Part shown: positions 7,637 through 38,889 of the stretch, piece after piece
Numbering within the stretch: position 1 is the first letter of the stretch
Layout: every line of letters begins with the position of its first letter
From: a virus
IMG/VR virus record: IMGVR_UViG_3300027779_000019
Span: 13,680-77,679 of that record
Length of the DNA stretch: 64,000 nt
Strand: one strand, 5' to 3'
The notes under the pieces: model-generated
Told to the model about the DNA's origin: nothing
The model's input: the letters and a program-made list of their open reading frames with translations, nothing else
The model's database searches: none
Translations under genes and position numbers: made by a program

Positions 7637-8611
7637 ATGGCTACCACCACACTAATCGAAAAATTGTTCCCGAATATCGTCGGGCAGACAGCGGCAAAAG
7701 GAAAAATGCGATTCTATATCGAAGGGCATTCCGCAAGCAATATGATCCCCCACATGATGCTTGTCGCACCCAAAGGGTGCGGCAAGACCACTATGGCAGA
7801 GGCATTCGGACGGAACCTAGTTCAGAAAGGCGAGATCAAGCAGAAGCCTTGGTTGAGCATAAACTGTTCTTCGATTAAGAACTTGGAGCAATTCTTCGAC
7901 CAGATAGTAATGCCTCACTTGATGGATAAAGATATAACATTTATGATGGATGAATGTCACATGATTCCCAATGATGTTCAAAACGCGCTTCTGACGGTTC
8001 TTAACCCCAACCCATCGCATACCAATACGTTTTCTTTTGGTGAGTTCGATTGGAATGTTGATTTTAAGCGCATTTCTTTTATCTTCGCAACTACCGAATC
8101 GCAGAAGATGGCATCACCGCTAATGGACAGATGCGAGCGCATCGACTTGGAGGAATACTCTAACGAGGAACTTGCAGAAATTGTCAAACTTAATACGAAG
8201 GTTGTATTTAAGCAGAATATCCTTGACGATATATCAACTACGCTTCGCGGCAATGCGCGGGGAGCGCAGAAAATGGCAACCAACATCGACATATACTGTA
8301 AGAAGAATGTTAAGAAGGTCTTCCAAAGGAATGATTGGAAACGGTTAACGAACGCTTTGGACATTATGCCGTTGGGACTGCACCGCATGGAGATGAGGGT
8401 TCTCCGTACCCTGTCAGAGCAACCGTTCACTAGGTTGGGCAGTCTGGCGGCGAAGTTAGGGATGAACAGGACGGTCATCCAGCGCGACTTCGAGATGTTC
8501 CTTGCGAAGAATGGGCTTTTCGACGTTGATCCGCTTGGCCGACAACTGACCAAGAAGGGGCTGGAACTTCTTTCCACCTACGACAAGAACAAAGACAAGA
8601 CTACTAAATGA
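7637..8611 (+). CDS. ruvB: Holliday junction branch-migration ATPase RuvB-like
   Basis: Walker A PKGCGKTT, Walker B DECH, ATT, PLMDR and RGNAR motifs; RuvB-type C-terminal winged helix (LAAKLG...E.FL...G......GR.LT..G). Confidence 0.85.
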   Translation: MATTTLIEKLFPNIVGQTAAKGKMRFYIEGHSASNMIPHMMLVAPKGCGKTTMAEAFGRNLVQKGEIKQKPWLSINCSSIKNLEQFFDQIVMPHLMDKDITFMMDECHMIPNDVQNALLTVLNPNPSHTNTFSFGEFDWNVDFKRISFIFATTESQKMASPLMDRCERIDLEEYSNEELAEIVKLNTKVVFKQNILDDISTTLRGNARGAQKMATNIDIYCKKNVKKVFQRNDWKRLTNALDIMPLGLHRMEMRVLRTLSEQPFTRLGSLAAKLGMNRTVIQRDFEMFLAKNGLFDVDPLGRQLTKKGLELLSTYDKNKDKTTK

Positions 8612-9157: not shown

Positions 9158-9274
9158 ACAACTCATTGATTACCAAGGACTTACATAGGCCGCCCTCCTA
9201 AGTCGCTGACTACCAAGGACTTACGGCCGCCGGGTAGCCCGGGGTGCGTAAACCGTTGATGCTCAATAGTTTAC
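9158..9274. repeat. double-palindrome element 1 (plus an extra box at 9158-9184)
   Basis: 27-bp boxes at 9198-9224 and 9248-9274, consensus GTAAGTCnTTGnnnnnCAAnGACTTAC, GC-rich spacer. Confidence 0.9.
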
Positions 9275-9335
9275 GACAGCGAGAAAGTTTCATTTAGTGC
9301 TTGACTTTTAGGCAAAAGTATGAGATCATATCCTC

Positions 9336-11670: not shown

Positions 11671-11862
11671 TATTATACTTTATGAGGCAAGAAACAAAAG
11701 AACAGCGTTGGGCCACAGACTACAAAAAGAAAATGGCAAAGATGAGCAAAAGCGTAGACCCAAAAGTGTGGGACTATATTTACGGCTCCAAATAATCCTC
11801 CTAGAGCTATTATAGTTCGCCTCCTTTCTGCGCACGAGTAGGAAGGGGGTTTTTTTTGCGCC

Positions 11863-11940
11863 CTAAAGTACTGACAGTTAAGCACTTACGGGGCGGCGGC
11901 TGCGGGCGGCGGCGTAAGTCCTTGGTACTCAGTGACTTAC
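11863..11940. repeat. double-palindrome element 2
   Basis: boxes 11863-11889 and 11914-11940; follows a terminator at about 11819-11858. Confidence 0.9.
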
Positions 11941-12002
11941 GTACGTAAAGTTTTATTCTTTTTTTGCTTGACTTTTTAGGTAAAGTGTGGCATAATACTC
12001 TC

Positions 12003-13256: not shown

Positions 13257-13508
13257 ATGAGCAAATATATAAATTCCCCAAAACGAAAATATTCCGTAAC
13301 ACACTTTGACATGAAGGCAAGGGGCAGCTTCGCCCTTGGAGATAAGCAGCTCCAAGGCCCCATCGAAATAGAGAGGGTACAAATAGCATGGCAACCCGAC
13401 GAGCAAACGAGCCACGCGCTATTATTTGAAAATCCCAATCATATAAATTTGATTCCGCTGATATTAGAAGAGGCGGGGTACGAGCTATCAGAAGATTCCG
13501 TGTTCTAA
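13257..13508 (+). CDS. hypothetical protein
   Basis: 83-aa ATG ORF whose stop lies within element 3. Confidence 0.5.
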   Translation: MSKYINSPKRKYSVTHFDMKARGSFALGDKQLQGPIEIERVQIAWQPDEQTSHALLFENPNHINLIPLILEEAGYELSEDSVF

Positions 13509-13580
13509 GTCGTTGACTATCAGGGACTTACGCGCGCCGGGCTGCCCGCGGCCGTAAACCCTTGGGCATCAATGACTTAA
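13505..13580. repeat. double-palindrome element 3
   Basis: boxes 13505-13531 and 13554-13580; spacer core CGGGCTGCCCG. Confidence 0.9.
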
Positions 13581-13684
13581 GGCCAAGAGAAAATTACAAA
13601 AAAACTATAATAGGATAATCAGAGGGCCTAAAAAGTTATTCTTTTTGCTTGACTATTAGCCGAAGCTGTGCTATACTTTCGGGA

Positions 13685-15274: not shown

Positions 15275-15418
15275 GCGTTTATAGTCTCATAATTTCGGGC
15301 AAATGTCAAGGTAAATATACAACTATTTCAAATATGTAAACACCTAAAAACGAAATAGGTTAAGAGCAAATAACTCAAATATATAAAAAAACTATAAAAG
15401 TATATTTTTTCCACAGTT

Positions 15419-15495
15419 GTAAGTCATTGACTATCAACGACTTACGTCCGGCGGGCTGCCCCCAGCCCGTAACCCATTAGTACTCAAAGGGTTAC
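15419..15495. repeat. double-palindrome element 4
   Basis: boxes 15419-15445 and 15469-15495. Confidence 0.92.
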
Positions 15496-15499
15496 ACCT

Positions 15500-16202: not shown

Positions 16203-16338
16203 AACAGAAAACAGTATACCACAAAATGGAGAAATGTCAATCAATAATGTCACTTTTTTAAAAAAGATATTTTAACTATTTATCGTACTTGGCATGAAAA
16301 CCCTCCTAAGGTATCGCTTTTTAGGGTAGTTGGGGTGC

Positions 16339-16415
16339 GTAAGTTACTGATTACCAAAGACTTACATTTTCGCGGGCAGCCCGCGGCCGTAAACTACTGG
16401 TAATCAAAGAGTTAG
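16339..16415. repeat. double-palindrome element 5
   Basis: boxes 16339-16365 and 16389-16415; spacer core CGGGCAGCCCG. Confidence 0.9.
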
Positions 16416-16628
16416 CCCCCCCAAGGACAAGTGAGTGAAACCTTGGGAGGGCTTGAGGAAGGTAGCCGGAGAGATGACGGCTACCAAAGTCAGCGGCAAT
16501 TATAGATTTTCTTTAGTTTTCTATTTCTTTTTAATCGCGCTTGAGTTATAAGTTCGTCGATCCTTTCGTCAACTAAACTAAAGGCAAGGATAGATTTTCC
16601 GCTTCGATTTTTTAGGTTGATCTTCATT

Positions 16629-17091: not shown

Positions 17092-17400
17092 TTAGAAATC
17101 TGGATCGCTTGTATGCTTGTAGTTTTTAAAAAATTCCGCTCTGGCTTGTTTCCTTAATTCTTTAAAGTAGCCATCAATCGACAAGGCAACCTCGTCCCGA
17201 GCATCACCGCTCCAAGGCATGTTTTCAATGTCACCAACAACAATGTCAACAACCTCCTTTATTGGCTGACCCCATGGGTTATCGGTATCTTTCACGAGCA
17301 GCTCCCTAACGCTCAGGTGTTCGCCCATTGGCTTGCTGCGGAAGTCGTTGCTAGCTATTTCCCAAACCTTATCTATTGCTTTTTTTATGTTAGAGTCCAT
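17092..17400 (-). CDS. hypothetical protein
   Basis: ATG 17400 overlaps the hydrolase stop (TAATG). Confidence 0.55.
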   Translation of the reverse strand: MDSNIKKAIDKVWEIASNDFRSKPMGEHLSVRELLVKDTDNPWGQPIKEVVDIVVGDIENMPWSGDARDEVALSIDGYFKELRKQARAEFFKNYKHTSDPDF

Positions 17401-17855
17401 TATAGTTTGTAAAAAACGTGTTGCCCGATAACCTTGACGGGCTTTTGACCTTTTGCCCAGTAAGGTTTCTTTTTCATCCAAGTCGCGTGGTAATGATTAG
17501 CGAAGCCAACAAAGTCACGACTTAAAAGTTTGATGTTTTTAGCCAATGCCAGCGCGTACTTCGCTTGCGGAACCTTCAACAAGTGTTCAAGATTCTTTAA
17601 CTTTTTACCGTTCCAACAACTAAATTGGTAGGGCTTGAGACAGATTTCGGTTGCTGTTCTCTTTCTCTCGAATGCGCGTTGAGCAATGACAGCAGCCACC
17701 GCGTACATTCCTCCCTGTCCTTCGCCACGGGCTTCTGCCAATATAGTGATAGCAATGATTTTGGTTTCTCTGGTGAGTTTTGCATTTGTGTGAGTGTGCG
17801 CGTAAACAGTAAGAGCAAAGGCGGCGACTAGTATAGTTGTTATTATTTTTTTCAT
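17400..17855 (-). CDS. SleB-like cell wall hydrolase (Hydrolase_2)
   Basis: signal peptide, EARGE..GM.AVA.VI, QFSCWN, HYHA, PYWA and IG.H.FY motifs. Confidence 0.88.
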   Translation of the reverse strand: MKKIITTILVAAFALTVYAHTHTNAKLTRETKIIAITILAEARGEGQGGMYAVAAVIAQRAFERKRTATEICLKPYQFSCWNGKKLKNLEHLLKVPQAKYALALAKNIKLLSRDFVGFANHYHATWMKKKPYWAKGQKPVKVIGQHVFYKL

Positions 17856-17856
17856 T

Positions 17857-18099
17857 TTAAGCTAAAAGGGTGACAGTTGCGTTAGAGTTAAGAGCGTGGA
17901 CAGTCGGTTCTTTTGGTTCGTCATCGAATCCGCAATGATTGCCAAGCGCGTGTTTTATTATAGCCCAAAGACTTGGGACTGGCCCGAACTGCTCAAGTGT
18001 TTTGTCGCCTCGCTTAACGGTAAGAGTCCAAGCGACTTTGCCGCTTTCTTCGCATTCGAAGATGTCTACTGTTTTTGTCGGATGGTTTATATCTCTCAT
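17857..18099 (-). CDS. hypothetical protein (MRD-start family)
   Basis: promoter TTGACT 18138; predicted mRNA start AGTTATGAGAGAT. Confidence 0.6.
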   Translation of the reverse strand: MRDINHPTKTVDIFECEESGKVAWTLTVKRGDKTLEQFGPVPSLWAIIKHALGNHCGFDDEPKEPTVHALNSNATVTLLA

Positions 18100-18134
18100 A
18101 ACTTGTAATATCGTATCAGATTTTAGGGCAAAAG

Positions 18135-18431
18135 TCAAGCACTATCTTTGCAAATTTCACATTCGCATTCTTGTGCTTTTATAGCTTCTTCGTTCCAGTC
18201 ATCGCAAAATGTGGTAAGTTCCTTAACTTCCTTTTTCGTTTTCAGTCCACGCTTGAATTGTTCCCAAGTGGGGCGTTGCGCTTCGGGAATTGCTTCCCAG
18301 CCTTTCATCAATTCGGCACGACGAGCCTGTTCCTCCGCCAACCACGGCAGAACGCTATTTGCTGACATATCGCCACCCTTTTCCGCTCTCCTGCGGATTC
18401 CTTCTGTTATTGCTCTTGAATTATCTCTCAT
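18135..18431 (-). CDS. hypothetical protein (MRD-start family)
   Basis: promoter TTGCTA/TATACT; predicted mRNA start AGTTATGAGAGAT. Confidence 0.6.
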   Translation of the reverse strand: MRDNSRAITEGIRRRAEKGGDMSANSVLPWLAEEQARRAELMKGWEAIPEAQRPTWEQFKRGLKTKKEVKELTTFCDDWNEEAIKAQECECEICKDSA

Positions 18432-18486
18432 AACTGGGAATAGTATAACACAATCTCGCAAAATAGCAAGCTTTAATGTCACTTTT

Positions 18487-18714
18487 TTAAGCCTCGATTC
18501 CCGCTTTGTCTTCGATCCATTCGAGATCTTCGCTATTCTCGATTTCGGTTAGCCTGTTCTGGACGTCGGCGAGTTTCTCTTCCCAATGCTCTATGCGGAT
18601 TTGAATCGCTTCCTTCCCAATGAGGTTAGTCTGCGCTAATATTTGCAACGCTCCACGCACTTCGGCGATAGCAATGCCTTCGTTCCTCAAACTCTTCTGT
18701 GTCGTATCTCTCAT
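18487..18714 (-). CDS. hypothetical protein (MRD-start family)
   Basis: promoter TTGACT 18752; predicted mRNA start AGTTATGAGAGAT. Confidence 0.6.
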   Translation of the reverse strand: MRDTTQKSLRNEGIAIAEVRGALQILAQTNLIGKEAIQIRIEHWEEKLADVQNRLTEIENSEDLEWIEDKAGIEA

Positions 18715-18864
18715 AACTGCAAAGAGCATAGCACAATCAGCCAAAAAGTCAAGAGAAAAGAATCACTTTTTTAACAAATATGAATAAAAAAAAGAACAAA
18801 TATTAGGACAAATATGCTTGACAAGTTCATCAAAAACCGAAAAAAATGACTTTTTAAAACTACC

Positions 18865-18941
18865 GTAAGTTATTGACTATCAAGGGTTTACGGCGGGCGG
18901 GCAGCCCGAGGCCCGTAAGTCCTTGGCGGGCAGAGGGTTAG
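18865..18941. repeat. double-palindrome element 6
   Basis: boxes 18865-18891 and 18915-18941. Confidence 0.9.
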
Positions 18942-18996
18942 CACCATCATCGGCGCGCTGTGTCTCAAGCGAAACGATGATGGTTTACGCTAGAGA

Positions 18997-19275
18997 CTAT
19001 ATTGAGTCACCAGCGGGCGTTCGCCTATTCGCGATCCTGTTGAGTTCCGCATTGCATTTACTCATTCGTTTCCGTAGGTTCTGCACCTCCAGTAACGTCT
19101 TGCGCTCAAGCATTTCTTCAGTCTTCATTTCGCTGAAGTACTCAATCATGAAGCGGAGCGTTTTGGTTTTGGTAGTGAACAGCTCATTGCTGAGCTTATC
19201 TAGGCTTTGCTTAACTTCGGGGGATACCCGAAGGTTGATGGCGACGCTTTGGTTGTTTTTCGTTATGTAGTTCAT
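18997..19275 (-). CDS. putative ribbon-helix-helix DNA-binding protein
   Basis: INLRVSPEVKQSLDKLS...TKT.LR..I pattern followed by a coiled coil. Confidence 0.5.
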   Translation of the reverse strand: MNYITKNNQSVAINLRVSPEVKQSLDKLSNELFTTKTKTLRFMIEYFSEMKTEEMLERKTLLEVQNLRKRMSKCNAELNRIANRRTPAGDSI

Positions 19276-19405
19276 TATAAGTTTAAAGTTAGAGCCGCAG
19301 CCGTTAATGCTGCACTGCCCGTTATGCATAGCCACGCATTCAGTTCATTCAATCCGAGATCATTAATTAACCATTTCATTTTATTTATCATAATTCTTTT
19401 TATAT

Positions 19406-19630
19406 CTAGTTGGGCCATACTTGCTCGATGTCCCAGCCATCACGGTCGTTACGCTTACGGCACTCGATGCGAACATCTAATACAGTTGTTTTCCTTATAA
19501 CACCAGCGAAACCGATTGCGTCATTGAACGCCCTATGGTCAGGCTCACCCTTCACCATAGGGAAGGCTTTGAAGTTGATGGTGCCGTCTGTCTTCCAGAA
19601 CACCGTAAACGTTTTGTTTGTATCTCTCAT
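19406..19630 (-). CDS. hypothetical protein (MRD start)
   Basis: begins ATGAGAGAT like the 17.8-18.7 kb genes. Confidence 0.55.
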   Translation of the reverse strand: MRDTNKTFTVFWKTDGTINFKAFPMVKGEPDHRAFNDAIGFAGVIRKTTVLDVRIECRKRNDRDGWDIEQVWPN

Positions 19631-19642
19631 TATATTAAATCC

Positions 19643-19843
19643 TTATTCGCACTCGTGGCACTGGTAGTTTTCCAAGCCGTGATCCCATTGGCCAACTTCT
19701 TCTAGGCTGATCACTACTTCCGCACCGCATCCGCAGCACACAACCTCATGTCCATCCACGGTGTTGTTGTCGTCGTTCCGATCCATCTCGTTGTTCATTT
19801 CGTTATTCATCTTATTCATTTCGTTGCTCTTTCTCTCACTCAC
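19643..19843 (-). CDS. small Cys-rich protein
   Basis: promoter TTGACT 19879; GTGAGTGAGAGA start; two CxxC-like pairs. Confidence 0.5.
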   Translation of the reverse strand: MSERKSNEMNKMNNEMNNEMDRNDDNNTVDGHEVVCCGCGAEVVISLEEVGQWDHGLENYQCHECE

Positions 19844-19882
19844 TTGTTATATCGTATCACATTTAAGGTTGAAAGTCAACAC

Positions 19883-20071
19883 TTATTTTGGATTATTTCC
19901 ACAATATCCAGCCAGTTGATTGGCTTGGTGCTTGGGGTCATTGTTCACCGTGTAGGTGTTACCGTTCAAGGTGAAGGTGTCACGCTTGGCCTCACGGCGG
20001 CGACGTTGCTCCAAGTGTCTGCGGATCTCTGATATTGTCATTTGATTGTTCATTGTCTTTCTCTCACTCAC
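19883..20071 (-). CDS. hypothetical protein
   Basis: promoter TTGACT 20107; GTGAGTGAGAGA at the predicted transcript start. Confidence 0.5.
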   Translation of the reverse strand: MSERKTMNNQMTISEIRRHLEQRRRREAKRDTFTLNGNTYTVNNDPKHQANQLAGYCGNNPK

Positions 20072-20157
20072 TGGGTATAGTCTAACACGATAGGCCCGAA
20101 AAGTCAAGCGGTTTCTTTGTTTTATTTCATTTTTATTTCGTGTGATTCTTTACCTAG

Positions 20158-20173
20158 TTGGCACGATTATTGC
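20158..20173 (+). promoter_or_regulatory. sigma54 (-24/-12) consensus site
   Basis: TTGGCACGATTATTGC matches TGGCACG-N4-TTGC. Confidence 0.6.
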
Positions 20174-20196
20174 CTAGTGATGATTGTATAACTGTC

Positions 20197-20272
20197 GTAA
20201 GTCATTGACTATTAGGTACTTACGCCTCGGGGCCAGCCCGCCGACGTAAGTCCTTGGTGCTCAGTGGGTTAC
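20197..20272. repeat. double-palindrome element 7 (centre of the divergent hub)
   Basis: boxes 20197-20223 and 20246-20272. Confidence 0.9.
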
Positions 20273-20295
20273 GCGAATGGCATGCTTCATGTGTG

Positions 20296-20311
20296 GCAGG
20301 TATCGTGCCAA
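20296..20311 (-). promoter_or_regulatory. sigma54 (-24/-12) consensus-like site
   Basis: TTGGCACGATACCTGC on the minus strand, GG-N10-GC. Confidence 0.55.
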
Positions 20312-20401
20312 GTCATTATAATACGACACGAAAAGAAAGTTATTTTTTTTACATTTAGGGGTTGACTTTTGAGGTAAGATGTGATATCATATTCCTAGTG
20401 A

Positions 20402-20587
20402 GTGAGGGGAGACCCTCCAACAGAAAGACAGATTATGGAAGATAAGAAGATTAAGACAGTTAAGGTCAAAGGGCCTTGGGTAGATGGAGTGCAGACAGTC
20501 AAGGAGATCAGCCTAGACGAGTGGACAAGCTATACGCCACTAAACAGGCGAGTACGGGGAGAATGGTTCCGAGTAGTTAAGTGGTAA
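20402..20587 (+). CDS. hypothetical protein
   Basis: promoter TTGACT 20362 / TATCAT; start uncertain (GTG 20402 or ATG 20435). Confidence 0.5.
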   Translation: MRGDPPTERQIMEDKKIKTVKVKGPWVDGVQTVKEISLDEWTSYTPLNRRVRGEWFRVVKW

Positions 20588-20630
20588 AAAGGGCTTGACT
20601 TTATAGGTAAAGTGTGATATCATTTATCCA

Positions 20631-20903
20631 GTGAGTGAGAGAAACAGTAAGATGAAAAACAAAATAAAATTCCTAAACGTAGTGTTCAACGTCAAGCGCA
20701 ACGCCGCTTACCAAGGCAACCACGAGCTTGCCAGAACCGATAGAATCCACACGACCTTCCCGCTCGGCACAACCGAGGAGGAAATGATCAGCGAGTTTCA
20801 CTCGGAGCTAGTCAACATCGACATTAACGGTAAGACTTGGCTAAAGGGTGAAATGATTCAGGTCACCAGCATTGATAATTGTTTCGAAGATTCAACTAAC
20901 TAA
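20631..20903 (+). CDS. hypothetical protein
   Basis: promoter TTGACT 20595 / TATCAT; GTGAGTGAGAGA start. Confidence 0.55.
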   Translation: MSERNSKMKNKIKFLNVVFNVKRNAAYQGNHELARTDRIHTTFPLGTTEEEMISEFHSELVNIDINGKTWLKGEMIQVTSIDNCFEDSTN

Positions 20904-20925
20904 ATTAAAACTAAACTATAACAAG

Positions 20926-21156
20926 ATGAGTATGCAAAGTATATGTTTCGCAGGGGTCACGCACAGCGATGGCCAGATTGCCGATGAAGACACAGCCAAC
21001 CACGTTGACGGCGGCTTCTTCGGTGTAGAGAACACAGTCCAACTCGGTGAGTGGGCGCAGGTTGACGGGGTAGGGCTGGGCGACTGGGCCAGCGAACTGG
21101 CGAGCTTGGCGGAGGATGGGTACAGTGACGTCACGTCCCTTGACTACGTAGGGTAG
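20926..21156 (+). CDS. hypothetical acidic protein
   Basis: ATG 20926 in the frame of track ORF 20872..21156. Confidence 0.5.
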   Translation: MSMQSICFAGVTHSDGQIADEDTANHVDGGFFGVENTVQLGEWAQVDGVGLGDWASELASLAEDGYSDVTSLDYVG

Positions 21157-21158
21157 GC

Positions 21159-21238
21159 CACCCCCTCCCCCCACGGCCCCGCCCCCTTTTTGAAAACAAG
21201 AGGGGGGGCGGGGGTAATATATAGCATGGGGGAGGGTG
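21159..21238. repeat. C-tract/G-tract nested inverted repeat at the module boundary
   Basis: CCCCGCCCCC/GGGGGCGGGG inner stem and CCCTCCCCC/GGGGGAGGG outer stem. Confidence 0.65.
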
Positions 21239-21390
21239 TTTTCATTCTCCCCGAAATCTTTGGGGGTATTGGAATAAACAAATCTAAAAAAATCCCAGAC
21301 AATCTAAAAAAATATCACCCTTTCGAATATCAATCCAGCTGCGCTGGATTTAAATTAATGAATTTATATCGAAGACAAGTGCACTTATAT

Positions 21391-21864
21391 TTAGCGCCGC
21401 CCATCTCTTAACCGATTGATAATCAGGGAAGTAGAGCGCCCTTTCTTAAACGGTAGGATGCAAATTTCCGCCCTGACCATCTCTAAAACGCTCCTTTCGC
21501 ATATATTGAGAGACTCTACGGAGTAATCTCCGCCTTTTGCATAAATGTGAGGCCTACTAGAAGCTATAAAGTCTCTGCCACCCTTTTCGGGGAAGACAGT
21601 TACTACGTCGACGGCTCTTAAGGCGTCGAGAACGGCCGCTCTATCGTTTTCTGAGTTAATTGGGCGGTCAGACCCCTTAAGTTGGCGTACGGAGGCGTCA
21701 CTATCGCATCCTACAAGTAGCAGGTCGCCCAAAGCAGCAGCTTTATTAAGATAATCTACATGACCAGCATGCAACAGGTCGAAACAACCATTCGTTACAA
21801 CTAACTTCGTGCTTGGGTCAAGATCGTCTCGCCAACTACGTAAATCATCAATAGAAACAAACAT
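21391..21864 (-). CDS. rfaE2: D-glycero-beta-D-manno-heptose 1-phosphate adenylyltransferase (RfaE domain II/HldC-like)
   Basis: TNGCFDLLHAGH, SDASVR.LKG..RPIN, KGGDY and STS.II motifs. Confidence 0.88.
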   Translation of the reverse strand: MFVSIDDLRSWRDDLDPSTKLVVTNGCFDLLHAGHVDYLNKAAALGDLLLVGCDSDASVRQLKGSDRPINSENDRAAVLDALRAVDVVTVFPEKGGRDFIASSRPHIYAKGGDYSVESLNICERSVLEMVRAEICILPFKKGRSTSLIINRLRDGRR

Positions 21865-21909: not shown

Positions 21910-22941
21910 ATGTGCAAGGAACTCTCTTCCGCCAAAGGGATCGTCTATAGGATACAGTGTTTAGTCTCCGATAAATCCTACGTAGGTCAAACAGGTAAAC
22001 ATTTATCCTTCTTCGATAGATACTCCGTAAAAAGATCATTACAAGATAAAACTCAAATCGAGCTACTAGAATACTTCAAAAGAGGTAAAACAAATAGATT
22101 TGGATCTGAACTTAGGAGAGACGTCGAAGCTTACCCCCCTGATCAGTTCAGGGTTACTATATTAGCCAAAGAAATAAAAAAAGACAAGGAAAGAGACTCC
22201 CTAGAGGCGGAATTCATCAAAAAATACAAAACCCTTGAAAAAGGATACAATACGATGAAAAATAGCTCTTTCGCCCGTCGCGAATTGAACTCTCCTTATT
22301 CTATCGTAGATCTAAGGACAATGAAGGAACTAAAAGGTAGTGACTTAAATGCCTTCGTCAAATCAATAATAACTGAAATAAGGCCCACCCATCGGTCAGG
22401 TAAGGAAAAAGAAAACGCCTTCAAGGTGACAAGATCACTGCTTTCGACTTTGCCTGTGTCGTTTAGGACTAATTTGCGAACCGGAAGATGGAATTGGCAC
22501 ACCTCGATTGAAAATTTCTCAATATACGGATACGCCTCGTCTTGGTGGTTAAAAAGCGGAGTACCGGACAACATGGAAGTAGTTCCCCATGAATACGACA
22601 CAATTTCCGGTAAAATGACATTACCGCTGCTTAAAATAAAAGAAGGGTACCTAGTAGAACACGGGCGAGGAAAAGCGTTTAATCCTGAACCGTTTATTTT
22701 CTCTATAGACCCAATAGAGCATCAAAAACAAAAAGAAATCATAAAAAATGAATTATCAGAGTGGATCTCGAACGAAGCTCTCAGTTATGCAGAAAAATTA
22801 GCGGAAAAATACAAATTTATATTAAATACCCCAATCGGGCCGGGAGGTGTGGATTCTTATCTGAATCTAATAGTCGAAGACGGCGGCCGGAACTCGTCGC
22901 ACGCGCACCCGCAACTTGGTGGCCGCGACCGAAAAAAGTAG
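21910..22941 (+). CDS. GIY-YIG domain endonuclease (free-standing, homing-type)
   Basis: GIVYRI...K.YVGQT, E..FI..Y.T...GYN motifs; opposite strand to its neighbours. Confidence 0.65.
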   Translation: MCKELSSAKGIVYRIQCLVSDKSYVGQTGKHLSFFDRYSVKRSLQDKTQIELLEYFKRGKTNRFGSELRRDVEAYPPDQFRVTILAKEIKKDKERDSLEAEFIKKYKTLEKGYNTMKNSSFARRELNSPYSIVDLRTMKELKGSDLNAFVKSIITEIRPTHRSGKEKENAFKVTRSLLSTLPVSFRTNLRTGRWNWHTSIENFSIYGYASSWWLKSGVPDNMEVVPHEYDTISGKMTLPLLKIKEGYLVEHGRGKAFNPEPFIFSIDPIEHQKQKEIIKNELSEWISNEALSYAEKLAEKYKFILNTPIGPGGVDSYLNLIVEDGGRNSSHAHPQLGGRDRKK

Positions 22942-26829: not shown

Positions 26830-27810
26830 CTACCATTGATGATTCCAGTACCATCCCCATGAATCTCTTCTGCCGTATCGAACATAAGAGTCTCGCGCCT
26901 CTTCTGGTCCCGCATTAGTTTTGCGCATTTGTCTTGATAGCCCATGAACCCAAGGAAACCATGTATATTTCTGGGTCTTGAAGTTTTCTATTTTGGTGGT
27001 GGACCTATCTTTTAACCATTTTACATCTACGCTGCCATATGCCCTTCTTATCCCGTACTTGAAATTAGAACCGTCAATGTAATATTTACCTTGCGCAGTT
27101 TTTGTCCGCTCGTCCAGCCATCTTTTGGTTTCGACATGACCATCCGCGAAAGCTAGCGCTGTTCCATCAATGTGGTACTTACCCGGAACGTCCATGTCGT
27201 ATACTTTATGCGTAGGTCCTCCTTCATTCATTACTACCCGAAAGCAGCCAGCATTTATAAATTCAAATGGCATTTCTATAAAAGTAAAAATATTAGAAGG
27301 TTTTTCTATGTCGGCTTGTTTATGGTATATTTTCCATTCTTTATCATTTTCTACTGGCCAGCCAGCCCACCCTCCTACGTGGATATTCATGCTATAGCTC
27401 CTATGACGCGGGAAGATCTGCCTTAACTCACCGGCCTTGTTTGTTATTCTGAGCATGTCCTTGTCTGCTGGGCATTTAAATACTCCAACAGATTTGCCCA
27501 CGTAAGGAAAAAGGGGAGTACTTTCTAGAAATTGTGCTTTATTTAGATATCGAGAAAGATTTAAACTTCCCGGTGCCCATGTATACTTCGAACATTTTTC
27601 ATACTTCCAAGAACTTGAATATAATATTTTGTCACCGTGGTCATCACTAAATATTGTGTGAGCCATTTGTAATTGTTTCTGATTATTTATGCAGGCTACT
27701 CTTTGTGCGATTGATTTCGCTTTGTTGATCGCAGGGAGAAGAAGGGCAACTAAGAGCGCAATGATCCCAATAACAACGAGCAACTCGACTAAAGTAAATC
27801 CTTTTTTCAT
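26830..27810 (-). CDS. prepilin-type N-methylation / H-X9-DG domain protein
   Basis: [15 protein letters not shown]-terminus, C.NN.KQ, F.CP.D, RSYSMN, H.DG..LAFADGH. Confidence 0.9.
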
Positions 27811-28757
27811 CAATAAGGGTTCCAAGTTGGATGGCTACCCCAACTGTCATTCCAATACCAACCCCACGAAGCGGACACCTTACCATCTATAGTGCGGTGA
27901 TTCCCGTCCCTATTGTATCTACCTATACCTCCCATAACTCCATACCATCTATGATTGTTGGGGTCTGGGACAATTGCTCTTGCCCTTAGCCATGCAAGAT
28001 CGCGATTATTTGGACTTACTATTTTATCCGTATTAGTCGTTGGATCTGTCGCATCAGATGATATATTTATTGTGTCTTGTTCAAGCCATCGTTTAAATTC
28101 GACGTGCGCGTCCACGAAAGAAACAACAGAGCCGTTGTTGTGATAAACCCCGGGCCAGTCTTGTGAGAAAAAGCTCTCACCACCTTTAAGTGTTGGCGCT
28201 ACTCTAAAGTTTCCAGCATTAATAGATTGAGGTGGCATTTCAATAAAAGTAAATAACAGGCTCGAATTATTTACATCGCCATATTCGTGATGAACTTTGT
28301 ACTGGCTATCTGATAACCAAGGCCACCCCGACCAACCACCGACAAAGAGATTTACGCTATAGGAACGTGGCCTATTTATAGTCTTCGCATTAACCGTAAC
28401 AGTGGATCTATCTCCGGGGCAATGATATATGCCCATACCCGCATAAGGCTTTAAGGGAGAAAAGAAGAGAGGCCTATCGGTTTGACCCCATGTACCGTTA
28501 CCACTCATACTGTCAGCAACCCATGCCCACATACCGGTCGGCTCTCCAGCCCAAGCTGAGGCGTAAGGGAACCTATTTTCGTGATCCCCTGCGAACTCCG
28601 AGTAAGCGAGATTAAGTTGGCGTTGGTTATTTATGCACGCGGCTCGCCACCCTGTCTGTTTAGCGGAACTTAATGAAGGGAGTAAAAGGGCCGCTAATAT
28701 CGCAATGATGGCTATCACCACCAGAAGCTCAATTAAAGTAAACCCTTTTCCTTTCAT
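27810..28757 (-). CDS. prepilin-type N-methylation / H-X9-DG domain protein
   Basis: [42 protein letters not shown]....FVDAH. Confidence 0.9.
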
Positions 28758-30805: not shown

Positions 30806-31192
30806 ATGAAAATATATTGTCCAAAATGCGGATCAGGATCCAATTACAACATGACTAAGCCCAAGTTCTGTCAGGGGTGCGGCAAGTCCTTTTTAAACGT
30901 AGAGTCAAATAGCGCAGTAAAGAAACAAAAAACAGTAACAAAGATAGAGGCACAGATAGCTCCTAAAATCGAGAAAGAAACTATCCCTAAAAATATAAAT
31001 AAATTAGAATTCGACACTGTTGGAACGCTACAAGTAAAAGGATCTGCGCTAGGTCAATTAGTGGGAACGTCTGAAGATACCGCAGTCTTCGGGGATAGGC
31101 AACAATCAACGGAACCCAACTTTAGCAGGGAGGAGTTTCTGGAGCAGTTCAAAAAAGAAGCTGGAACTAGCCGTCCTCCAACAGATGGCTAA
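30806..31192 (+). CDS. zinc-ribbon protein
   Basis: YCPKCG...PKFCQGCG. Confidence 0.65.
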   Translation: MKIYCPKCGSGSNYNMTKPKFCQGCGKSFLNVESNSAVKKQKTVTKIEAQIAPKIEKETIPKNINKLEFDTVGTLQVKGSALGQLVGTSEDTAVFGDRQQSTEPNFSREEFLEQFKKEAGTSRPPTDG

Positions 31193-31877
31193 CAATAGAA
31201 AGACACCTAAAAAATCTTTTGAGTCGAGAATAAAGGAGATAGACTCTGAGATTCAAAAAAGAAGAAGCAGGTGGAGGTTATCCTCCCTGTCTTGGATGGA
31301 TTTTGACGATATATCTCAAATACTGAGAATCCATATTTTTAAAAAATGGCATCTATACGACGATAGCAAACCGTTGGGTCCTTGGCTAAATAGGATAATA
31401 TCTAATCAGATAAAAAATCTAGTAAGGAATAATTACGGAAATTACGCTAGGCCTTGCTTGAAATGCGCTGCTGCTGAATCGGATAGTTTGTGCACTATAT
31501 ACGGAACGCAAGGCCCTGAATGCCCCTTGTATCTAAACTGGGTCAGGACAAAGAAAGCCGCTCATGACCTAAAAATAACCGTACCTATAGAAAATCACTA
31601 TAAAGAAATATACTCTAAGGAAAACGACAACACTTATAGTGAATCGTCCATAGGTAGGATTCATGAAAAAATGAAAGAAGTGTTGAAAACTTTAGAGTGG
31701 AAGGTTTATGATTATTTGTACATACAAGGCTACTCTGAGGAGAAGACCGCTAAACTCATGGGGTACAAGACTACAGAGAAAAATAGGAGCCCCGGCTACA
31801 AGCAAATAAAAAATATCAAAAAATCCATAATAGCCAAAGTAAAAAAATGTCTGAAGAACGACGAGATAGATCTATAG
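31185..31877 (+). CDS. phage sigma70-like factor (probable late sigma)
   Basis: region 2-like DFDDI.Q......KKW..YD...P..PWL.RII.N.IKN and a C-terminal HTH (L...E..VY...Y..G.S....A..MG). Confidence 0.7.
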   Translation: MANNRKTPKKSFESRIKEIDSEIQKRRSRWRLSSLSWMDFDDISQILRIHIFKKWHLYDDSKPLGPWLNRIISNQIKNLVRNNYGNYARPCLKCAAAESDSLCTIYGTQGPECPLYLNWVRTKKAAHDLKITVPIENHYKEIYSKENDNTYSESSIGRIHEKMKEVLKTLEWKVYDYLYIQGYSEEKTAKLMGYKTTEKNRSPGYKQIKNIKKSIIAKVKKCLKNDEIDL

Positions 31878-37749: not shown

Positions 37750-38889
37750 ATGAGCGAAAATGTAGACGTAAGTCAATACGCAGCAGGGGCAGATATATCC
37801 TTACCGGATATTCCTATGCCGGAACCAGTGGTAGAGACCAAAAAGGTCATAAGCGACGAAGTGGAGGTGGCTTATAAGTTCTGCTTTGTGGGTTCGGGTC
37901 AAGGAGGGTCTAGACTCGCCGAAACCTTTCATGGATTGGGGTATAGGAAGGTTTGCGCTTTGAATACCGCAAAGCAAGACCTCAATACCGTAAAGTTAGA
38001 CAATAAGCTTTGCATAGGGGACGGCGGAGCTGGAAAAGATCCGGATGTAGCTAAAGAGATTTTTGATTCCAAAAGGGAAGACGTTTTGGATTTCATGAGG
38101 TATTCTTTCGGTGACGATTTTGACCGAATATTTGTATGTGTCGGGGCCGGTGGAGGGACAGGGGCTGGTACTCTCGGCCCGTTAGTCAGTACCGCAAAAG
38201 AGCTGCAGGAAACCGTTGGCGTAAAAAATAATAAGGTCGGAGCTATCGTGGCGCTACCTAAAAACTCCGAAGGCAAGAGAGTTAACGCAAACGCTCATAA
38301 GACCCTAAAGGAAGCCTATGAATTAGTTGAGTCGGGAGATATTTCGCCTTTAATTATAGTAGATAACGAAAGGATAAGTAAACTATACCCCGGTTTGGTG
38401 GTTTCTAGTTTTTGGCAAACAGCAAATAGGAGTATGGCTGGATTGTTTCATTTGTTTAATTTGACCGCCGCCAAGGATAGTACTTATTCTGCATTCGACT
38501 CAAAAGACTACCTAAGTATATTAGACTCTGGCTTAATGGTCTTTGGAGCTTCCCCAGTTAAGGACTGGAGTGACCCGGTAAGTATATCTAGATCAGTTAG
38601 GGATAATTTAAAAGGAAACATCCTCTCCGGAGGGATAAATTTAGGATCTGGGACTTGTGCCGGGGTCGTAATAGTGGGAGGAAAAGAAGCTTTGGATAAC
38701 GTACCTCAATCCAACTTAGACCAAGCTTACGCTCAATTGTCAAGAATACTGAAGGCAAACAGTACCGTCCATAGAGGAATATATAGCGGAGATAAAGAAG
38801 GTCTGACGGTCTATAGCTGCATAGGTGGGCTAGAAGAGCCTAAAGAAAAACTAGAGGAATTAAAACTTTTAGGCGATCTAACCGAGTAA
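37750..38889 (+). CDS. tubulin/FtsZ-family GTPase
   Basis: G.GQGG, NTA..D, G.GAGKDP, GGGTGAG signature and DN motif. Confidence 0.88.
   Translation: MSENVDVSQYAAGADISLPDIPMPEPVVETKKVISDEVEVAYKFCFVGSGQGGSRLAETFHGLGYRKVCALNTAKQDLNTVKLDNKLCIGDGGAGKDPDVAKEIFDSKREDVLDFMRYSFGDDFDRIFVCVGAGGGTGAGTLGPLVSTAKELQETVGVKNNKVGAIVALPKNSEGKRVNANAHKTLKEAYELVESGDISPLIIVDNERISKLYPGLVVSSFWQTANRSMAGLFHLFNLTAAKDSTYSAFDSKDYLSILDSGLMVFGASPVKDWSDPVSISRSVRDNLKGNILSGGINLGSGTCAGVVIVGGKEALDNVPQSNLDQAYAQLSRILKANSTVHRGIYSGDKEGLTVYSCIGGLEEPKEKLEELKLLGDLTE

Follow-up and report, generated by a model that had tools for sequence, protein, structure and literature searches.

A mirror-symmetric hub in the early region of an uncultured marine phage is built around one copy of a widespread double palindrome flanked by sigma54-type sequences

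The core of an intergenic hub in an uncultured phage genome is one copy of a palindromic intergenic repeat, element 7 (E7), that is widespread in uncultured phages. The hub has a real, non-random mirror symmetry, and on both sides of E7 a sigma54-type sequence points inward. We lean towards reading the hub as a composite intergenic regulatory cassette, consisting of a protein-binding E7 resembling the promoter-early stem-loops (PeSLs) of T4-type phages, flanking sigma54-type sites, and sigma70-type promoter cassettes that point outward.

The window analysed here is a stretch of 64,000 nt (bases 13680-77679 of the 77,679-bp IMG/VR viral contig G000, CheckV completeness 49%). Twenty sequencing runs from 16 studies, all of seawater or other marine DNA, contained the stretch. 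No DNA match between positions 19000-21500 and cultured phages was detected by blastn, and the terminase was at most 26% identical to those of cultured phages (Bacillus and Clostridium phages). Genes on the contig include those for a terminase, a portal, a tubulin/FtsZ homologue, PhoH and a sigma70-family sigma factor, along with very large tail-fibre-like genes. ARAGORN found no tRNA at the hub. The features of the hub and its surroundings are as follows.

19851-19879, - strand: outer left promoter, sigma70-type, TTGACT-17-TACGAT; same cassette family, inverted-repeat pair
19883-20053, - strand: left small early gene, 56 aa, no relatives by tblastn
20063-20071, - strand: GTGAGTGAG leader, 5' end of the left early mRNA
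20079-20107, - strand: inner left promoter, sigma70-type, TTGACT-17-TAGACT, TG-extended, points left
20136-20143, unstranded: TTTCGTGT, mirror partner of ACACGAAA, hub-specific and not conserved in relatives
20158-20174, + strand: left sigma54-type box TTGGCACGATTATTGCC, into E7, predicted start ~20185
20196-20273: E7 at the hub, a 78-bp double palindrome
20196-20224, unstranded: E7 arm A, imperfect 29-bp palindrome (13-3-13)
20225-20244, unstranded: E7 core, GC-rich, palindrome of the GGGCC-A-GCCC type, lineage-specific sequence
20245-20273, unstranded: E7 arm B, imperfect 29-bp palindrome
20295-20311, - strand: right sigma54-type box TTGGCACGATACCTGCC, into E7, predicted start ~20284
20326-20333, unstranded: ACACGAAA, 28 nt upstream of the right -35
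20362-20390, + strand: inner right promoter, sigma70-type, TTGACT-17-TATCAT, TG-extended, points right
20398-20406, + strand: GTGAGTGAG leader of the right early mRNA
20435-20587, + strand: right small early gene, 50 aa, orthologues with 79-92% identity in 6 other contigs
20595-20623, + strand: outer right promoter, sigma70-type, 82% identical to the inner right promoter

An earlier note on this DNA had described five motif pairs with the common centre 20234.5, and direct reading found every one of them in place. It had also put a further promoter pair (19879/20595) within 3 bp of that centre and reported no symmetry between the motifs; the centre of that pair is indeed 20237, and identity between the motifs is at chance level (e.g. 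4/20). Reverse-complement identity around 20234.5 is 97/172 (ungapped, 172 nt per arm), compared with a mean of 43.3 (sd 6.1) over all window centres and a runner-up of 79 by the same score. The mirror identity of the hub is 56%, and aligning its two halves requires 0 indels.

The five pairs represent fewer than five independent observations. The -35 boxes and the GTGAGTGAG tags do not count separately because one fixed-length promoter cassette includes both, and the pair labelled element 7 consists of the two ends of a single palindromic repeat unit. In the outer part of the symmetry, each -35 box lies 51 nt from its sigma54-type box. ACACGAAA occurs at a mirrored position in this genome only; it was considered as a general upstream promoter element in relatives and rejected. 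Since the translations of the left and right genes have no obvious similarity and the left gene has no relatives, the symmetry does not stem from a duplicated gene pair.

The early promoters make up their own cassette family, which runs from an A-rich tract (often with GTGAAA) through TTGACTTTT and a TG-extended -10 to the leader. GTGAGTGAG is the variant in this phage of a family-wide start motif, GTTATGAGRGA, and has copies at 20398-20406, 20631-20639, 19835-19843 and 20063-20071. In relatives (L133, L215, L374 and L376) the motif includes the start codon of the orthologous early gene, which would give near-leaderless mRNAs. In this phage, ~35 nt are inserted between the GTGAGTGAG motif and the ATG of the right-hand gene. 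Among the IMG/VR matches listed, consensus sigma70 promoters no more than 160 nt from E7 were outward in 161 cases and inward in 16, with E7-to-promoter distances of 14-160 nt. In one related contig (G001), nearly all early promoters have an E7 that ends one A-tract away from their -35 box.

Each E7 unit comprises two 29-bp palindromes, with the half-site CGTAAGTCnTTGA, on either side of a GC-rich palindromic core. The hub is not unique: this genome has 7 copies of E7, and relatives have hundreds. All 7 copies in this contig (covariance model R1) fall between 9.2 and 20.3 kb of the window, in the early small-gene region. The 6 copies besides the hub, each unstranded, are:

9197-9275: E7 copy
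11862-11941: E7 copy, between an intrinsic terminator and the next promoter
13504-13581: E7 copy
15418-15496: E7 copy
16338-16416: E7 copy; a degenerate box, TTGGCATG, lies at 16289
18864-18942: E7 copy

Four related contigs have about 21, 13, 7 and 2 copies by covariance model, each set within a small-gene stretch of 10-15 kb. Core length is 13 nt in three of the genomes and 19-22 nt in the other two; the core sequence is near-uniform inside one genome and different among genomes, while the arm consensus, with invariant TAA and TTG, is common to all. Scanning IMG/VR yielded at least 508 E7 arm doublets in at least 123 related loci. Loci were counted only if they had paired arms, because single hairpins arise by chance among terminators. 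In a large clade of uncultured phages, E7 cassettes are interspersed through the early region of small genes, and the arm consensus provides a sequence handle for spotting the early regions of this clade in metagenomes. The arm pattern also gave at least 120 matches in bacterial genomes. Most of these were lone perfect hairpins that followed tRNA genes or preceded T-runs, and they were rejected as a clue to the host, as chance alone should produce perfect 10-bp hairpins among terminators.

In both the -24 and the -12 element, the two hub boxes agree with the sigma54 consensus (TGGCACG-N4-TTGC or CTGC), as the earlier note had said. They share TTGGCACGAT (20158-20167 on the + strand and 20311-20302 on the - strand), read TGGCACGATTATTGC (+, 20159) and TGGCACGATACCTGC (-, 20310), and have 10 nt between the GG of the -24 and the GC of the -12 element. 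The pattern TGGCAYG-N4-YTGC has 2 matches in the window, both at the hub, against 0.03 expected from shuffles, and the entire 77.7-kb contig contains only the same 2. In three related contigs (G002, G003 and G004) TTGGCACG flanks E7 as well, inward in every case. Across many phage contigs, TTGGCACG-N4-yTG boxes form 72 distinct box-arm pairs, all aimed at the arm. T is found at +13 in 66/72 of these sites and G at +14 in 62/72, both positions lying outside the 8-mer that was searched; they correspond to the TTG of the sigma54 -12 element at canonical spacing, and +8 to +11 are variable. The -12 element is preceded by a pyrimidine and followed by A or T, with purines at -3 and -1, and these flanking positions presumably also fit the extended sigma54 consensus. 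C at -12 is present in only 30 of the 72 boxes (42%). ChIP-validated sigma54 sites of Salmonella include TTGA, TTGT and GTGT variants at -12 (PMC3844500).

In loci ascertained by their arms only, 7 of 31 boxes lay 28-40 nt from an arm and pointed at it, compared with a chance estimate of ~0.4. These same loci have 31 boxes for 757 arms, most E7 copies being boxless. Box-to-arm distances cluster at 28-29 nt (the commonest), 39-41 nt and 49-51 nt, with a minor class at 31-35 nt; the steps hint at helical phasing, with the box copies not independent of one another. Relative to neighbouring sigma70 promoters, the boxes were tandem in 10 cases, divergent in 11, both in 4 and associated with none in 48, and the arm is the sole constant partner of the box. 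The box motif has no dyad symmetry, and its two blocks are too close for a sigma70-type -35/-10 pair. As judged from their sequence, sigma54-type sites aimed at the arms recur across the E7 family. Neither PF00158 (Sigma54_activat) nor Sigma54_DBD or a sigma54 gene was found on G000 and five box-rich relatives, all of which are fragments. An activator may instead come from the host, and sigma54 use is a prediction from sequence.

Orthologues of the right-hand gene (20435-20587) served as an anchor for comparing upstream regions. E7 is present at 3/7 orthologous sites, and neither E7 nor boxes are present at the other 4/7. Upstream of the G003 orthologue (83% identity), the same promoter comes first, followed by a box, E7 and another box; farther out, where a mirrored promoter would stand, G003 has the terminator of a co-directional gene. 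One further contig has E7 without boxes at the orthologous site. Eight other loci, among them the orthologous site in G003, have units with an inward box on each side of E7, and these units span 129-155 bp. None of the 8 loci combines equal box distances with symmetric outward promoters, and in most double-box units the box-to-arm distance is unequal on the two sides. The earlier note had proposed checking symmetry and spacing in relatives. The inner part of the hub passed this check, G003 retaining two inward GG-N10-GC boxes, but the outer promoter symmetry is absent in all relatives. The core of E7 with two inward boxes is an inherited module, and only this genome has the perfect outer symmetry. 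Writing the early genes as A to D, the order is A-hub-B-C-D on one strand in G003, D<C<..hub>B>A in G000 and B-C-A in L133 and L215. These four orthologous early genes (17400-20903 here, 12751-16598 in L023, and in L133 and L215) differ in order and orientation from genome to genome, which is consistent with cassette shuffling.

We used partner swaps to compare pairing within the E7 arms. Among 100 arms, within genomes, real hairpin partners paired at 74.2% compared to 76.0% for between-copy swaps, and at variable arm positions at 57% compared to 61%. An alternative long hairpin likewise showed no pairing gain over swapped partners. With a model-fitted alignment and a global shuffle there was a small pairing excess (83.0% compared to 79.9%), which we attribute to the core helix, sequence relatedness and the model-fitted alignment. 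In that alignment, unpaired cells outnumbered double changes by ~6:1 at variable arm pairs; true two-sided changes were seen only in the short GC core helix, between genomes. No compensatory base changes preserving the arm stems were found, and an early impression of such changes (GTAACCC/GGGTTAC and similar) was rejected after the partner-swap test. E7 is under sequence constraint rather than pairing constraint. The lack of base-pair covariation in the arms suggests that E7 is protein-binding DNA, not structured RNA, and it may be a duplex site in which a half-site recognised by a protein is repeated four times. The nucleoprotein node proposed in the earlier note, acting at the level of DNA, fits this absence of covariation. 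In G003, E7 lies just downstream of canonical intrinsic terminators, as does the copy at 11862 here; given this placement, E7 is expected to be mostly untranscribed.

If E7 were instead a small-RNA gene, with the sigma54 boxes as its dedicated promoters and the RNA as its working product, the hub would be transcribed convergently into both sense and antisense E7 RNAs. This would explain why all boxes point into E7, with a predicted start 0-12 nt ahead of the first arm in most sites, a commonest box-to-arm distance fixed at 28-29 nt and an orientation unrelated to neighbouring genes. The fold of the hub + strand (-38.9 kcal/mol, z -2.4) and a modest excess of G:U over A:C in the first arm in the box direction (77 compared to 44) point the same way. 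However, the second arm has no strand asymmetry, and the long hairpin on the box-transcribed strand has no excess of G:U over A:C (109 compared to 89). Non-pairs make up ~15-18% of E7 stem positions, the arms do not covary, no terminator follows E7, and boxes are missing from most E7 copies. A permissive Rfam search returned only chance-level matches away from the hub and none for E7. We consider a small-RNA gene unlikely. A non-autonomous mobile element of the MITE or REPIN kind, with the TTGGCACG boxes as terminal inverted repeats, would account for presence or absence at orthologous sites, many copies per genome, the similar double-box span (129-155 bp) and a core that is homogeneous within a genome and different between genomes. 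The hub copy, however, has no target-site duplication, the two box-to-arm distances differ in most units and most copies are boxless. Family searches of five contigs, all fragments, found no resolvase, integrase/tyrosine recombinase or Y1 transposase. With its second conserved block at the sigma54 -12 spacing and without a dyad partner, the box fits a promoter, not a transposon end. We regard the mobile element as even less likely than the small-RNA gene.

Two further readings had been raised in the earlier note. A bidirectional replication origin activated by inward transcription would be in keeping with a symmetric array of protein sites between divergent operons, with promoters aimed into the element as at transcription-activated origins, and with a local turn in cumulative GC skew at ~20 kb. 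That turn in the skew, which the earlier note had suggested examining around 20235, just follows the gene-strand switch, and there is a deeper minimum at ~30 kb. The centre of the hub is GC-rich, with no AT-rich unwinding element between the boxes. E7 is multi-copy (7 copies here and up to ~21 in relatives), and its absence together with the boxes from 4/7 orthologous sites also argues against an origin, which makes this reading very improbable. A telomere-resolution site or genome-end junction would suit a large imperfect palindrome, but the hub identity of only 56% differs from the near-perfect palindromes of resolution sites, and the module of E7 with two boxes is internal and repeated in relatives. 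Contigs from three independent runs (three studies) cross the centre and bridge 20001-20488 with no differences, and contigs of 4 runs contain no variants within this interval, thus giving no footprint at the population level. A protelomerase domain (PF16684) was not found on the contig, which represents 49% of the genome. Together, the bridging contigs and the lack of a protelomerase argue against a genome end, to which we assign next to no probability.

In the composite cassette that we favour, E7 would be double-stranded DNA bound by a phage or host protein, and as there are four half-sites per E7, two dimers are the simplest guess. On each side of E7, a putative sigma54 promoter sequence would be aimed inward, and beyond each box a standard early sigma70 cassette would run outward through its A-rich tract, TTGACTTTT, TG-extended -10 and GTGAGTGAG leader. 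The node may serve to insulate the two divergent early operons or to modulate them. The boxes may be occupied by host sigma54 holoenzyme, which would form a stable closed complex there or act at an activator-dependent promoter reading into E7. We infer this occupancy, like protein binding by E7 and its effect on the promoters, from sequence features. Promoters aimed at a bound palindrome would be an odd promoter design, which is a point against the composite cassette. As the most likely source of the outer symmetry, we propose a recombination or inversion event at the palindromic E7 that brought two promoter-proximal halves together head to head; this origin is a conjecture, and no reciprocal junction of the proposed inversion was found.

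A bolder and rather doubtful extension is that the clade wires host sigma54 holoenzyme into its early region, E7 being an enhancer-like platform that touches the sigma54-RNA polymerase held at the box. The box-to-arm steps of ~10-11 bp would then keep both partners on one face of the helix. If this platform exists, early expression or cassette recombination would answer host stress or nutrient signalling, and the enhancer would lie downstream of the start. We know of no described phage example of a sigma54 module with a downstream enhancer, and of few reports of sigma54 promoters in phages.

The closest described system to E7 appears to be the PeSL, a repeated cassette of T4-type phages (PMC2839356, PMC4122927). 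Both are ~100-bp repeated cassettes that lie between genes in an early region of small genes with unknown function, and in both a GC-rich (polyG/polyC) palindromic part accompanies a strong sigma70-like promoter whose -35 has an AT-rich tract upstream. In both systems, relatives differ in which genes adjoin the cassettes and in what order. By analogy, E7 cassettes behave in a PeSL-like manner with respect to their position in terminator/promoter gaps, their gain and loss at orthologous sites and their shuffled neighbours, and a PeSL-like role in regulation and recombination may be their function. Unlike PeSLs, E7 adds two conserved 29-bp palindromic arms without pairing constraint, its core is palindromic with no U-tract or T-run, separate canonical terminators precede it, its distance to the promoter varies (14-160 nt), and some copies have sigma54-type boxes. 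The phage itself also differs from those carrying PeSLs, in that it is not T4-like, with no cultured DNA match and a terminase identity of at most 26%.

The hub shares consensus boxes, and palindromic putative protein sites within ~100 bp, with sigma54-dependent promoters that have enhancer sites (PMC7057263, PMC3844500). It differs from them in that its promoters face the palindromes, which would place the putative enhancer downstream of the start, in that no enhancer-binding protein was found on the phage, and in having C at -12 in 42% of boxes. In the central control region of phage phi29, p4 and p6 act between the divergent promoters A2c/A2b and A3. Inverted-repeat protein sites (putative at the hub) lie between divergent promoters in both cases, and by this analogy such an array could be a nucleoprotein switch; phi29 has just one such locus and E7 has many scattered copies, and the sequences and proteins are unrelated. 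The stoperators of mycobacteriophage L5 are 13-bp asymmetric single sites for a known repressor. Like E7, they place many copies of a protein site (putative for E7) in short intergenic spaces of the early region, and unlike them E7 is a 78-bp double palindrome. REPINs and BIMEs of bacterial chromosomes are inverted palindromic doublets separated by a spacer, intergenic and multi-copy, and E7 likewise has two inverted palindromic units with a spacer and many intergenic copies. E7 differs in residing in phage genomes and being tied to promoters, and no RAYT-type transposase was found on the contigs searched.

Across many uncultured phage genomes, there are thus 72 sites where a sigma54-type box faces a conserved double palindrome. 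If host sigma54 holoenzyme binds the boxes, early development would be coupled to host physiology; to our knowledge, no such coupling through sigma54 has been described for a phage. The E7 family would also extend beyond T4-type phages the idea behind PeSLs, that repeated cassettes drive and shuffle early genes.

Several genes elsewhere in the window were also noted. A 324-aa AAA+ protein (7637-8611, + strand) aligns over its full length with RuvB, including the C-terminal winged helix. As the sole AAA+ protein considered, it was rejected as an enhancer-binding protein, being RuvB-like throughout and without a GAFTGA motif. Relatives of this protein were found by tblastn at 17 E7-bearing loci in other phages, and a Holliday-junction motor near arrays of cruciform-capable palindromes may be worth attention. 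A sigma70-family sigma factor with region 2 only (31185-31877, + strand) is encoded directly upstream of the packaging and head genes and is probably a late-gene sigma. The tubulin/FtsZ-family GTPase (37750-38889, + strand; Pfam Tubulin, 46.8 bits) is encoded between the portal and head genes, and a GIY-YIG-type homing-endonuclease-like gene (21910-22941, + strand) lies 1.7 kb right of the hub. At 26830-28757 (- strand), tandem genes encode two proteins whose N-termini have a type IV pilin methylation motif. Because their DUF1559 match (17.9 bits) is under the Pfam cut-off of 23.3, the hint of a PVC host is weak.

The richest box locus is L113 (IMGVR_UViG contig G005, 33.8 kb), with 14 TTGGCACG boxes within 11 kb. 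Some of these boxes are arranged back to back (CGTGCCAA...TTGGCACG); others are 54 nt away from an arm, and TTGACA stands between box and arm.
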